Assembly: GCA_001780985.1 (NCBI GenBank)
Contig: MFJV01000001.1
Span: forward strand, 629,466-693,465
Reading direction: 5' to 3'
DNA length: 64,000 nt
Source: Candidatus Gottesmanbacteria bacterium RIFCSPLOWO2_01_FULL_43_11b
GTDB taxonomy: Bacteria; Patescibacteriota; Microgenomatia; UBA10105; UBA927
Numbering within the stretch: position 1 is the stretch's first letter; each line of letters starts with the position of its first letter. Both the position numbers and the translations under genes were made by a program. The notes under the pieces were generated by a model. That model was not told the DNA's origin. It was given only the letters and a program-made list of their open reading frames with translations, and made no database searches. This document shows, piece by piece, positions 5,080 through 62,837 of the stretch.

Positions 5080-7018
<1,939 letters not shown>

Positions 7019-15188: not shown

Positions 15189-16007
15189 TTATATCCCAAA
15201 TAGCTCTTGTGCGTTTTTCGTCGTTGCCTCTTCCACCTCACGTGGGGTGATTTTTTTAAGCTCGGCTATTTTTTTTGCAATAAGCGGAATATATTTGGGT
15301 TCGTTTCGGCTTCCGCGATGAGGAACTGGGGTGAGAAACGGAGCGTCCGTTTCCAAAAGAAGCATTGAAATCGGTATATGAGGAACAATCATCTCAAGAT
15401 GTTTTGAATACGTGACGTTTCCATCAATCCCAACAAAAAATTTATGTTTTTGAGCATCGCGTAAATCTTGTAATCCTCCGGAAAAACAATGAATTACTCC
15501 TCTTGGGGTGTTGGGTAAGTTGTCCAATACGCCAAAGAAATCCTCATATGCATCGCGGCAGTGCATGATGGCAGGTAAATTATGTTCTAGTGCAAGTTTT
15601 AATTGAAGTTTGAATAACTGCTTCTGATTTTCTTTTCGACCTAATGCGTCGTGGCCTTTATACTGATGGTAATCCAATCCGCATTCACCGATTGCTACTA
15701 TTGTTGTCATTCCGGGCTTGACCCGGAATCCATTGGGATCCCGGCTCGGTGGCCGGGATGACTTGACGAGTGACTCGAGCAGACTTACATCTTTAATCTC
15801 CTGCGCTTCATACGGGTGAAAACCAACGCTTGCAAAGATTACACCCGGGTGTTTTTTTGCAAGATCCACTACTAACCGGCAGGAAATCGGATCAACACCG
15901 GGATTAATAAATTTCTTGACCCCCGCTTTTTTTGCATTCCCAATCACCATCGCCTGATCTTCTTTATACTGCGGGAATGTGAGGTGACAGTGGGTGTCGA
16001 TATACAT
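15189..16007 (-). CDS. tatD: TatD family metal-dependent DNase/hydrolase carrying an in-frame insertion of about 18-20 aa
   Basis: MYIDTHCHLTF..., IVAIGECGLDY, MHCRDA, LLETDAPF. Segment SSRPPSRDPNGFRVKPGMTT just before AIGECGLDY has no counterpart in E. coli TatD and is encoded by a palindromic repeat. Confidence 0.75.
   Translation of the reverse strand: MYIDTHCHLTFPQYKEDQAMVIGNAKKAGVKKFINPGVDPISCRLVVDLAKKHPGVIFASVGFHPYEAQEIKDVSLLESLVKSSRPPSRDPNGFRVKPGMTTIVAIGECGLDYHQYKGHDALGRKENQKQLFKLQLKLALEHNLPAIMHCRDAYEDFFGVLDNLPNTPRGVIHCFSGGLQDLRDAQKHKFFVGIDGNVTYSKHLEMIVPHIPISMLLLETDAPFLTPVPHRGSRNEPKYIPLIAKKIAELKKITPREVEEATTKNAQELFGI
15705..15762. repeat. Short palindromic repeat element (two adjacent hairpins) inserted in-frame in tatD
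   Basis: TGTCATTCCGGGCTTGACCCGGAATCCAT (hairpin ATTCCGGG/CCCGGAAT) followed by ATCCCGGCtcggtgGCCGGGATGAC. The 29-mer is identical at 59964-59992. Confidence 0.6.
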
Positions 16008-16014
16008 AAGAATT

Positions 16015-16437
16015 CTACTTCGCTATCAAAAGATATAAGCCTACTATAGAAATTATAAATCCAAATAACTGTTTGAGTGAGAGTGTTTCTTTCAAAACAA
16101 ATATACCCAAAACAACAGCAAGTAATACAATTCCGATTCTTACAAAAGGTACTCCTATCGATAAATTTGTGCCAAGCGAGAACATTTTTATAAAAAAAAT
16201 CGACCCAAACCCAATCGAAATTCCTGCGATAGCGGGAAATATAAAACCTTCTCTTGAGGTTAGAATTTCTTTTCCAGACAACTTAGTTGAGATGAACCAA
16301 ATGAGAGGAGGTAATGTAGAGAAAATATTTATAAGAAATGCGCCAAAAGCGTCATCAACTTTTCCAGCGGATTTCTTAATAAAGAAATCCATTAACGCAT
16401 AGGAAAATATTGTCAGAATTGCAAAAAATATCCACAT
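16015..16437 (-). CDS. Small EamA/DMT-like 4-TM membrane protein
   Basis: 140 aa, four hydrophobic helices, half-size DMT topology. Confidence 0.4.
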   Translation of the reverse strand: MWIFFAILTIFSYALMDFFIKKSAGKVDDAFGAFLINIFSTLPPLIWFISTKLSGKEILTSREGFIFPAIAGISIGFGSIFFIKMFSLGTNLSIGVPFVRIGIVLLAVVLGIFVLKETLSLKQLFGFIISIVGLYLLIAK

Positions 16438-59953: not shown

Positions 59954-59963
59954 TTTGTTCAAG

Positions 59964-59992
59964 TGTCATTCCGGGCTTGACCCGGAATCCAT
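59964..59992. repeat. Second copy of the 29-nt palindromic repeat (partial element), 7 nt upstream of the GIY-YIG gene
   Basis: TGTCATTCCGGGCTTGACCCGGAATCCAT is identical to 15705-15733. Confidence 0.6.
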
Positions 59993-59998
59993 CTTGGT

Positions 59999-60289
59999 AT
60001 GGTAAGGCATTATTTTGTTTATATTCTTGCCAGTAAGCCGAATGGAACATTGTATATTGGCGTTACGAATAATCTTGGTAGGCGAACTATTGAGCATAAA
60101 TATGGTTTGATTGATGGTTTTACTAAAACATATAGCGTTCATCGACTTGTGTATTATGAAATATTTACTGATATTAAATTGGCGATATATCGGGAAAAAC
60201 AGTTAAAATGGTGGAAAAGAGATTGGAAAATAGATTTAATCAACAATAAGAACCCAGAGTGGAAAGATTTGTATAAAGCAATATTTTAA
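59999..60289 (+). CDS. GIY-YIG domain nuclease (UPF0213/YhbQ-like small stand-alone form)
   Basis: HYFVYILASKPNGTLYIGVTNNLGRRTIEHKYG...EKQLKWWKRDWKI carries GIY...YIG, R and E/N catalytic positions. Confidence 0.7.
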   Translation: MVRHYFVYILASKPNGTLYIGVTNNLGRRTIEHKYGLIDGFTKTYSVHRLVYYEIFTDIKLAIYREKQLKWWKRDWKIDLINNKNPEWKDLYKAIF

Positions 60290-60292
60290 CTT

Positions 60293-60643
60293 ATGCAATT
60301 CTTAGTAATAGGGAAAGATGGTAAAGATGAAAAGGCCGCGGAAAGAAGATTAGCAGTTCGTGAAGCTCATCTTTTATTAGGCGATCAGATGGAAGCTTCA
60401 GGTAAAAGATGGTATGGGTGCGTACTAAAGGATGATAAGGGAAAAATGATTGGATCCATGGCTATATTAGATTTTCTATCAGAAGAAGAACTCAAAAAAT
60501 ATCTTAACAAAGAACCATATATTGTTGGAAAAGTCTGGAAAACGGTTGAAATATATAAATGTGAGGTTAAAAATCCTTGGAAATTTAATCGTCCAGAATC
60601 ATTTTTTAATACAAAAACTGGATCCCAGCGTTCGCTGGGATGA
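60293..60643 (+). CDS. YciI-like (Dabb-fold) protein
   Basis: MQFLVIGKDGKDEKAAERRLAVREAHLLLGDQMEASGK fits the YciI family N-terminus (YFLVIGKD...RLAVRPAHLAYL). Confidence 0.55.
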   Translation: MQFLVIGKDGKDEKAAERRLAVREAHLLLGDQMEASGKRWYGCVLKDDKGKMIGSMAILDFLSEEELKKYLNKEPYIVGKVWKTVEIYKCEVKNPWKFNRPESFFNTKTGSQRSLG

Positions 60644-61230
60644 CAAAAAACACTATGCATATAGTTTTTTTCGGACCGGAAGGATCGGGGAAGGGAACGC
60701 AAGCCAAACTTTTAAGCGAAAAGCTGAACGTTCCGATTTTAACGTCAGGCGATCTTGTTCGTGACGCAGCAGCCAATGACAAGGGAATTATTGGTGAGGT
60801 TTGTCGTCAGGCACTTTCAGAAGGAAAGTATGTTGCCGACAGCGAAATGTTCGTTCTTTGGAAATGGAGACTAAAAGATGAGGATGCAAAGGGCGGATGG
60901 ATCATGGATGGATTTCCGCGTAACGTCGAACAGGCGCAATTCTTAGATGACAAAATTGACAAATACGGTTATAAAATTGAAAAAGTATTTTATCTTGATC
61001 TTAATGAAGAAGAATCCTACAAGAGACTCATTGCACGCGGGAGGCCACTTCACCCCGGAAGTACGGAACTCCATGATTCTCCCGAACGGATAAAACAGAG
61101 ACTAACAATTTACAAAGAGGGAGAAAAGAATGTTCTTGACTATTACAATAATAAAGGCGTGCTATTTACCATTGATGCAAATCAATCCATCGAAAAAGTA
61201 CACGAAGACATTCTAAAACATACACAATGA
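60640..61230 (+). CDS. adk: Adenylate kinase (short, no Zn lid)
   Basis: IVFFGPEGSGKGTQAKLLSEKLNVPILTSGDLVR. Confidence 0.88.
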   Translation: MTKNTMHIVFFGPEGSGKGTQAKLLSEKLNVPILTSGDLVRDAAANDKGIIGEVCRQALSEGKYVADSEMFVLWKWRLKDEDAKGGWIMDGFPRNVEQAQFLDDKIDKYGYKIEKVFYLDLNEEESYKRLIARGRPLHPGSTELHDSPERIKQRLTIYKEGEKNVLDYYNNKGVLFTIDANQSIEKVHEDILKHTQ

Positions 61231-62815: not shown

Positions 62816-62837
62816 TCCCGCAGAGCGGGACAAGCTT

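Follow-up and report, generated by a model that had tools for sequence, protein, structure and literature searches.

Probable CGTC-tagged hairpin repeats around an Ssn-type nuclease gene, and as an in-frame pair within tatD, in a Gottesmanbacteria genome

Among described bacterial repeats, those closest to the elements treated here are the NTS elements of Neisseria meningitidis and their partner nuclease (Chenal et al., 2025; Nat Commun, PMC11893778). NTS is an oriented form of dRS3, CGTCATTCCCGCGMAVGCGGGAATCYRG, with relatives termed SRM, and its partner SsnA is a 94-residue single-domain GIY-YIG nuclease that binds NTS/SRM only as single-stranded DNA (ssDNA), cuts a few nucleotides (nt) upstream, and leaves the complementary strand uncut, with mutation of Y6, Y17, or E64 abolishing cutting by the N. 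meningitidis enzyme. In a survey of Ssn homologues, an SRM was found nearby in 71% and on both sides in 42%, and the NTS-ssnA-NTS arrangement was likened—as a hypothesis only—to an insertion sequence. NTS is rarely intragenic in N. meningitidis (2%), and neither bacteria of the candidate phyla radiation (CPR) nor in-frame insertions are mentioned in that paper (PMC11893778). A search for later literature on Ssn mobility found none. Described here is a 64-kb stretch of the genome of Candidatus Gottesmanbacteria bacterium RIFCSPLOWO2_01_FULL_43_11b (contig MFJV01000001.1; the whole analysed stretch is called the window), in which hairpin repeats very probably of this family bracket an Ssn-type nuclease gene and also form an inverted pair inserted in frame within tatD.

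The repeat class itself had been defined earlier as CGTC-tagged repetitive extragenic palindromes (REPs) by Di Nocera, De Gregorio, and Rocco (2013; BMC Genomics, PMC3733652). Each repeat consists of an unpaired CGTC (often TGTC), an 8-9 bp stem starting from A-T pairs, a 4-5 nt loop, and a 3-nt tail; the repeats occur mostly as inverted dimers, and the class includes Neisseria dRS3 as well as Rickettsia RPE-4 and RPE-6. Intragenic dimers were reported there to encode 20-30 residues, often in genes of DNA metabolism, and the class, in the words of the authors, "apparently lacks a dedicated transposase" (PMC3733652).

In the window, a 29-mer, TGTCATTCCGGGCTTGACCCGGAATCCAT, occurs in two exact copies, both on the + strand (15705-15733 and 59964-59992), just as a preliminary description made from the letters alone had reported; no third site was found at up to three mismatches across the 64 kb, and the chance expectation, from 100 dinucleotide-preserving shuffles of the window, is 0. 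Each exact copy contains a hairpin with an inverted partner nearby, one pair lying within tatD and the other enclosing the nuclease region, referred to below as the cassette.

15706-15731, + strand: hairpin copy 1, left half of the tatD doublet, GTCA-TTCCGGG-cttga-CCCGGAA-TCC, within the exact 29-mer
15736-15762, - strand: hairpin copy 2, the inverted partner in tatD, GTCA-TCCCGGC-caccga-GCCGGGA-TCC
59965-59990, + strand: left cassette hairpin, identical to copy 1, 11 nt past the secY stop and 8 nt before the ssn ATG
60620-60644, - strand: right cassette hairpin, the fourth copy, GTCA-TCCCAGC-gaac-GCTGGGA-TCC, inverted relative to the left one

Read along the + strand, the tatD pair has the order GTCAT...ATCC / GGAT...ATGAC, as does the nuclease region; the tagged ends point outward in both cases, and all four copies form the expected hairpins when folded as ssDNA, with z-scores of about -4 relative to shuffles. 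Copy 2 is an inverted member of the copy-1 family whose stem changes are compensatory. Thus, the "second hairpin" previously seen in tatD does exist, as an inverted copy of the same family and not as a different element; likewise, the earlier inventory was right about the two 29-mer sites but missed the fourth copy, at 60620-60644(-), and the gap between the 29-mer and the nuclease start, given before as 7 nt, is actually 6 nt (59993-59998). A permissive scan (GTCA plus any 6-bp stem, one mismatch) was rejected as noise, having returned 121 matches in the window versus 137 in shuffled sequence.

Each copy has an unpaired GTC tag, an 8-bp stem opening with A-T and T-A, a loop of 4-6 nt, and a CC(A) tail. 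Three copies carry a TGTC tag and the remaining one AGTC; the stems, ATTCCGGG, ATCCCGGC, and ATCCCAGC, measure 8 bp each, with loops of 5, 6, and 4 nt and tails of CCA or CCC. For comparison with relatives, 80 metagenomic loci (L125-L204) encoding proteins 60-69% identical to the window nuclease were used as reference loci, and a covariance model, R1, was built from 124 distinct tagged hairpins lying within 150 nt of ssn relatives, aligned and including zero window sequence. The consensus of this alignment, TTGTCATTCCCGCGnAAGCGGGAATCCAG, is the published NTS. Run over the whole window with filters off, R1 returned exactly four significant matches, which are the four copies: 15702-15734(+) for copy 1 (38.0 bits, E=8.9e-8), 15733-15766(-) for copy 2 (22.0 bits, E=0.0018), 59961-59993(+) for the left cassette hairpin (35.8 bits), and 60617-60648(-) for the right one (38.7 bits, E=5.7e-8). 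The next match has E=0.25. This match, at 6806-6829(-), scores 14 bits, reads GTCATTG....GAATCCA, and is almost stemless; it may be a decayed copy or chance.

Repeats of this type were also encountered far from the window. A degenerate subfamily pattern, run against species-representative genomes, matched at least 120 loci, frequently as outward-facing doublets, and the matches listed include Proteobacteria, Chloroflexota, Bacteroidota, Planctomycetota, Clostridia, and CPR. A nuclease gene adjoins 2 of the 120 listed genomic matches; for a dispersed repeat, the association is properly tested starting from the nuclease gene, as was done with the reference loci. Inverted dimers are represented by the tatD doublet, by intergenic doublets in the related loci L003, L205, and L206, and by several of the genome matches. 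The exact 26-nt core, GTCATTCCGGGCTTGACCCGGAATCC, was found in three Gottesmanbacteria contexts and, in addition, in Cyclobacteriaceae, Bacteroidales, Gallionella, and Binatia genomes (L029, L035, L049, and L081). Thus, the possibility that the 29-mer is confined to its two window sites was refuted by further exact copies of its core in related genomes. The presence of the core in unrelated phyla suggests, as a reading of sequence identity, either that the hairpin is under very strong constraint or that it has spread horizontally together with its nuclease.

With good confidence, the 29-mer and its variants can be placed among the CGTC/TGTC-tagged REPs, alias NTS/SRM, paired with an Ssn-type GIY-YIG nuclease. 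Three points weigh against this placement. First, the GTC tag and the perfect stem were requirements of the hairpin detector behind R1 and are therefore present by construction; not imposed were the 5′ T, the T after GTCA, and the ATCCAG/T tail. Second, the published strict SRM motif, HGTCWYN(0-2)YYVSBRHN(0-5)WNVSBRGN(0-2)RNCYNB, fits the right cassette hairpin alone, with 0.17 matches expected by chance, and misses three of the four window copies. Third, four copies are visible, as counted in the 64-kb window alone; the related 20-kb loci hold 2-4 hairpins each. The repeat class (2013) and the partner nuclease (2025) are both published, and the system is therefore not of a new kind. As a Gottesmanbacteria, or CPR, example, it has no earlier description that was found for the phylum.

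In its resemblance to Ssn/NTS, the locus combines a single-domain GIY-YIG protein of about 95 residues with bracketing inverted hairpins, a GTCAT head, an ATCC tail, and dispersed extra copies. It differs in its CPR host, in its CCGGG or CCCAGC stems and CTTGA loop, in the YciI-like open reading frame (ORF) inside the bracket, in the in-frame intragenic doublet, and in the deleted second copy and the filled and empty sites found among relatives. With the CGTC-tagged REPs, the window repeats share the tag, the 8-bp stem opening with A-T/T-A, the short tail, the inverted dimers, and an intragenic dimer. They are unlike them in bracketing an ssn gene, whereas the 2013 survey found no dedicated enzyme, and in one loop of 6 nt, which is 1 nt above the 4-5 nt range; CPR genomes lay outside that survey as far as its text shows.

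The nuclease cassette is located between secY and adk and is composed as follows.

59965-60644, + strand: whole cassette of 680 nt, consisting of hairpin, ssn, yciI-like ORF, and inverted hairpin
59999-60289, + strand: ssn-type gene for a single-domain GIY-YIG nuclease of 96 residues (Pfam GIY-YIG, 2.6e-14, residues 5-78)
60293-60643, + strand: YciI-like ORF of 116 residues (Pfam YCII, 1.9e-7), inside the hairpin bracket

No second domain was found by Pfam in the 96-residue protein, which has 7998 homologues; the best-scoring of these carry names from Gottesmanbacteria and other Patescibacteria. Judged by the names of the nearest homologues of both this protein and TatD, the window belongs to Candidatus Gottesmanbacteria (Patescibacteria). 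Residues Y8, Y19, and E66 are each at least 98% conserved among 121 homologues, and they stand at the same intervals (11 and 47 residues) as Y6, Y17, and E64 of N. meningitidis SsnA, the residues being matched by spacing only. The best solved-structure match is a weak one, to 1zg2 (UPF0213 protein BH0048; E=0.004). An intron-borne or free-standing GIY-YIG homing endonuclease was considered and rejected: TIGR01453 matches residues 6-35 only, the score for group I intron endonucleases being 23 bits versus a cut-off of 56, the protein has a single domain, and no intron was detected in the window with Rfam. More generally, no position in the 64 kb scores above the gathering threshold of any Rfam family, tRNA included. 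PADLOC returned no match and PHROGs returned weak matches only, to families of unknown function; thus, readings in terms of defence or phage are unsupported. The 96-residue protein appears to be of the Ssn type and, by analogy with the published enzyme, would bind the folded hairpin and cut ssDNA a few nt 5′ of the GTCAT side.

An outward hairpin was observed upstream of the nuclease gene in 59 of 79 related loci, an inverted hairpin downstream in 63 of 80, and both in 52 of 79, compared with 0.02 per stretch for equivalent background stretches of these loci. Both-side bracketing was also found in L003, L211, and L212. These counts uphold the pairing of repeat and nuclease gene that had been put forward in the preliminary description. 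Of the 52 doubly flanked loci, only 10 have left and right copies with the same stem and loop, so that heterodimeric brackets, that of the window included, are the rule. Nucleases sharing a hairpin loop class resemble one another slightly more (64.7% identity within classes versus 60.9% between, a difference reached in 0 of 2000 permutations that ignore kinship). This clustering was not counted as evidence of co-evolution because the permutation test ignores shared ancestry.

The bracketing bears on the question of whether the repeats are served by some other enzyme—such as an IS200/IS605-type or RAYT tyrosine transposase encoded elsewhere—with the GIY-YIG gene being merely a neighbour or passenger. 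GTAG-tagged REPs are mobilized in this way, the use of other transposases by CGTC REPs is left open in PMC3733652, and Ssn has no known strand-transfer chemistry. However, ssn is bracketed in 52 of 79 relatives examined here and, according to the published survey, in 42-71% of homologues, the published Ssn enzyme binds these hairpins specifically (PMC11893778), and Di Nocera et al. found no transposase gene flanked by CGTC repeats (PMC3733652). Judged from the flanks of ssn loci and the published surveys, mobilization by such an enzyme is accordingly considered improbable. The Ssn-type nuclease itself may mobilize the repeats.

The second site of the repeats lies within a conserved gene and was found to differ from its closest relatives by exactly the repeat pair.

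15189-16007, - strand: tatD, encoding a TatD/YchF-family hydrolase of 272 residues and hosting the doublet (Pfam PF01026 TatD_DNase, 6.3e-72, full profile)
15706-15762, no strand assigned: 57-nt doublet with GTCAT/ATGAC outward ends and the 4-nt spacer ATTG, in frame, at TatD residues 83-101

The protein scores 240 bits with TIGR00010 (cut-off 206). The doublet amounts to 19 codons, and the peptide added is SSRPPSRDPNGFRVKPGMT; the GTCAT...ATGAC ends and the preserved frame had been recognized before, and the sizes then given as roughly 58 nt and 18-20 residues are exactly 57 nt and 19 residues. The closest TatD homologue (P0121; 88% identity) has 253 residues versus 272. In L001 and L002, tatD is 90% identical to the window gene at the DNA level and is without exactly 15706-15762; with the 57 nt removed, the window gene reads LVK|TIVA versus LAKFSVA in these two. 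The exact absence from the closest orthologue identifies the doublet as an insertion. A second filled/empty pair, L213/L214 (95.5% identity), shows a 102-nt insert that is again bounded exactly by GTCAT...ATGAC. No orthologue was found to encode the same segment from unrelated DNA. The insert-bearing allele is present on 6 contigs from at least three assemblies, and the doublet is therefore not an assembly artefact. Indeed, an origin of the repeats as a chance palindrome or artefact is of negligible probability, given zero expected matches, the allele in independent assemblies, and the exact core in both related and unrelated genomes.

The position of the insert appears to be a tolerant one. 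In a confident AlphaFold (AF2) model of TatD based on 55 homologues (confidence score, pLDDT, 90.7), residues 83-101 form a coil that links a helix (75-83) to the strand (103-112) bearing the conserved AIGECGLDY block. The catalytic face of a TIM barrel is formed by the C-terminal ends of its strands, and the insert is thus on the tolerant side of the barrel; the fold is predicted by the model to be kept despite the insert. The length of this loop ranges from 5 to 41 residues in 121 homologues, and the loop is the sole large internal variable region, with hairpin-type peptides present in 10 sequences. One TatD homologue, P0177, has an insert of a single repeat copy. The earlier notion of a REP/MITE-type element (MITE, miniature inverted-repeat transposable element) that tolerates insertion into coding sequence is borne out by the closest orthologue lacking the exact 57 nt and by the predicted retention of the fold. 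The host gene of the doublet looks essential, and such repeats can remodel protein loops outside Proteobacteria.

Comparison among relatives addresses whether the insert was gained repeatedly or is ancestral in this group of Patescibacteria and was precisely lost in many lineages, including the closest relative. The syntenic tatD genes of L205 and L206 carry doublets at the same loop, with the same left and right hairpin types and different spacers, and the sharing of pair type, orientation, and phase at nearly the same codon by these two and the window would suit an ancestral insert. The shared orientation requires no special explanation, however: turned the other way, the pair would bring a TGA stop into that phase, and selection would account for the orientation seen. 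In a neighbour-joining tree, the insert-bearing TatDs are scattered, with that of the window nested among insert-free proteins next to an empty sister 94% identical, and with another insert-bearing TatD (P0135) having empty sisters at 96-97%; several independent gains are thus likelier than one ancestral gain. L207 carries the same 26-nt core in tatD in another reading phase, and at least one event in this gene was consequently independent. An ancestral insert would further require many precise in-frame losses, and copy 1 still matches the ssn-adjacent copy at all 29 nt, which points to a recent origin. Ancestry followed by loss is therefore regarded as very improbable.

In addition to these repeats, the same TatD loop of other Patescibacteria was observed to hold recurrent peptides, namely GSRPVKKQGETPS (P0133, P0137, P0146, P0183, P0222, P0223), PPSRSSLDFARDKL...PPGRWPKDSFQV (P0136, P0156, P0161, P0184, P0198, P0203), and S-x-S-P/L-[VI]-T/S-H-x-SP (P0138, P0153, P0172, P0176, P0194, P0201). 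They resemble translations of other repeat families, and the loop may, to judge from these likenesses, collect several small repeats.

More detailed information on the cassette came from L003 (GCA_016194575.1) and L004 (GCA_964642005.1), in which an 86% identical nuclease gene is located directly before adk, with the identical 29-mer upstream of ssn and the identical right hairpin downstream. The 26-mer core also occurs upstream of ssn in L212. The ssn genes of the window and L003 share 83.5% of their nucleotides (243/291), and the two flanking hairpins agree at 56 of 56 nt, an outcome with a probability of about 4e-5 at the rate of the gene. The hairpins have thus remained unchanged while ssn diverged, indicating constraint on the hairpins or homogenization among copies. 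Two other Gottesmanbacteria loci, L211 and L212, contain more distant orthologues in complete bracketed cassettes within unrelated gene contexts, and secY, adk, and map are absent from the neighbourhood of the nuclease gene in all 80 metagenomic loci.

The fourth copy places both the GIY-YIG gene and the YciI-like ORF inside the bracket of inverted hairpins. The right hairpin encodes the C-terminus of the YciI-like protein, KTGSQRSLG, and supplies its TGA stop; the ORF is absent from the otherwise collinear cassette of L003/L004. Short ATTTT(TT)AA stretches were noticed at both junctions of the ORF; the difference may have arisen by microhomology deletion or by insertion, in either direction.

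A further form of the cassette was found in the infA-rpmJ spacer of L003 and L004 (L003:2827-2983), which contains a nuclease cassette with an internal deletion, about 145 nt long, and one extra hairpin. The element consists, in order, of the 29-mer, a spacer of full-cassette length, the beginning of ssn (17 of its first 18 nt), the 3′ end of ssn, and GGATCCCGGCTCGGAGGCCGGGATGAC, and it also keeps the sequence that precedes the right hairpin in the full cassette. Its left and right hairpins are the pair of the tatD doublet, bar one loop nt in the right hairpin. The ssn remnants between doublet-type hairpins indicate that doublets arise from cassettes by internal deletion, and the location of the element indicates that the cassette was copied to a second site. 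The infA-rpmJ spacer of the window (62816-62837) measures 22 nt and holds a small GC hairpin, CCCGCagaGCGGG, and no cassette. Filled and empty states thus differ in both directions between close relatives, and these small CPR genomes present a natural experiment with an intact cassette, a gene-less cassette retaining the gene ends, and a minimal intragenic doublet, each with an empty site.

These comparisons support, at the level of sequence, a cassette that is or formerly was mobile, with the doublets as its miniature derivatives. According to this proposal, the unit made of a + hairpin, ssn, and a - hairpin would have moved between sites in Gottesmanbacteria genomes, internal deletion would leave an inverted hairpin pair, and the 57-nt pair in tatD would be a minimal, non-autonomous derivative, able to survive there as a multiple of three that is stop-free in its phase and orientation and lies in a coil N-terminal to a barrel strand. 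The nuclease would recognize the folded hairpin on one strand and, as published enzymes lead one to expect, nick just outside the GTCAT end; an outward pair would then receive one nick per outer border, on opposite strands, in agreement with the exact GTCAT...ATGAC borders. Completion of the new copy would fall to host replication or repair, a step that is needed because a hydrolytic GIY-YIG enzyme cannot rejoin strands.

Several observations speak against mobility driven by the nuclease. No target-site duplication was found at either the window/L001 or the L213/L214 pair, and classical cut-and-paste or replicative transposition is therefore not indicated. The few codons flanking both tatD inserts diverge more than the gene average; the filled allele, judging from these flanks, could have been imported by homologous recombination instead of inserted in place. 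GIY-YIG enzymes are hydrolytic, with no known strand-transfer activity. Furthermore, the published enzyme leaves the complementary strand uncut, and each strand of a doublet would thus be cut only once, which falls short of a complete mobility mechanism. Active mobility by an autonomous element of an undemonstrated mechanistic class, in which a hydrolytic, hairpin-guided ssDNA nuclease is combined with host repair or replication, is accordingly offered as a tentative proposal, plausible but somewhat short of probable.

Some of these observations, together with the conservation of the hairpins, would be accommodated if the repeats were REP-type elements serving the host, either as transcript-end or stability signals or through restriction by Ssn of incoming ssDNA in natural transformation, the latter as demonstrated for Neisseria, and not currently mobile, with the tatD doublet spread by recombination of a filled allele and the remaining differences due to recombination and deletion. 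Modulation of transformation is the sole role demonstrated in vivo for Ssn/NTS (PMC11893778), the far better conservation of the ssn-adjacent hairpins than of the gene suggests a function, the diverged flanks are what an imported tract would show at its edge, the same left and right hairpin types recur with differing spacers in tatD of the window, L205, and L206, and target-site duplications are absent. However, L003/L004 have a copy of the cassette, with ssn remnants, at another locus, which requires duplication to a new site; complete cassettes occur in unrelated contexts; both tatD inserts end exactly at GTCAT...ATGAC; and the core in L207, in a different phase, means at least one independent event. 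A purely host-serving origin is thus judged unlikely, although it keeps appreciable weight, and it is partly compatible with a mobile cassette, since a domesticated function and past mobility can coexist.

If the cassette is indeed mobilized by its nuclease, the latter would be the "missing transposase" of the superfamily of CGTC-tagged REPs, including Neisseria dRS3 and Rickettsia RPE-4/6, and the entry of repeats into coding sequence with exact GTCAT...ATGAC borders and without target duplication would be explained. The question of whether Ssn mobilizes its own hairpins becomes directly testable with these loci. The interpretation given in the preliminary description was essentially right; the pairing of such repeats with such a nuclease (PMC11893778) and intragenic dimers of CGTC-tagged REPs (PMC3733652) had already been published.

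Three other groups of elements invite comparison with the mobile cassette proposed here. Like REPIN-RAYT systems, it has a single-copy nuclease gene flanked by recognized hairpins, inverted doublets as the non-autonomous unit, and recognition of ssDNA; unlike them, it has no GTAG tag, and its Ssn nuclease is hydrolytic and non-homologous to the domesticated IS200/IS605-type HUH/Y1 transposases of those systems, which form covalent intermediates and can rejoin strands. Membership of the REP/REPIN-RAYT group was rejected, the window tag being GTC and not GTAG and the bracketed gene being of the GIY-YIG type. The Rickettsia palindromic elements (RPE) likewise are palindromic in-frame inserts in conserved genes that add a peptide at tolerated positions. 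Classical RPE-1 is longer, at about 100-150 bp. Only RPE-4 and RPE-6 are placed in the CGTC class (PMC3733652), and RPEs are set beside the window repeats by description. MITEs derived from insertion sequences are similar in that a short derivative keeps both ends after internal deletion, as in the infA-rpmJ element of L003, and differ from the elements described here, which show no target-site duplication, have individual hairpins as ends, and involve no DDE transposase.

Some minor features of the two sites were also noted. Between metG and tatD, the window contains a gene for a 140-residue EamA-like membrane protein (16015-16437, - strand), which is absent in L001 and in L205-L207, where metG abuts tatD. 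At the cassette, the first ATG of adk (60640) lies inside the ATGAC end of the right hairpin and overlaps the stop of the YciI-like ORF. Donation of the adk start by the hairpin was considered unlikely, as the collinear L003 gene opens at the second ATG (MHIVFFG), at position 60655 of the window. The contigs of L003 and L004 start about 60-100 nt upstream of the left cassette hairpin (L003:1-130, L004:1-90), with secY missing there, and assemblies may break near these repeats. Just upstream of the left cassette hairpin, both contigs carry a different hairpin, CCACGGGCtttaGCCCGTGG.

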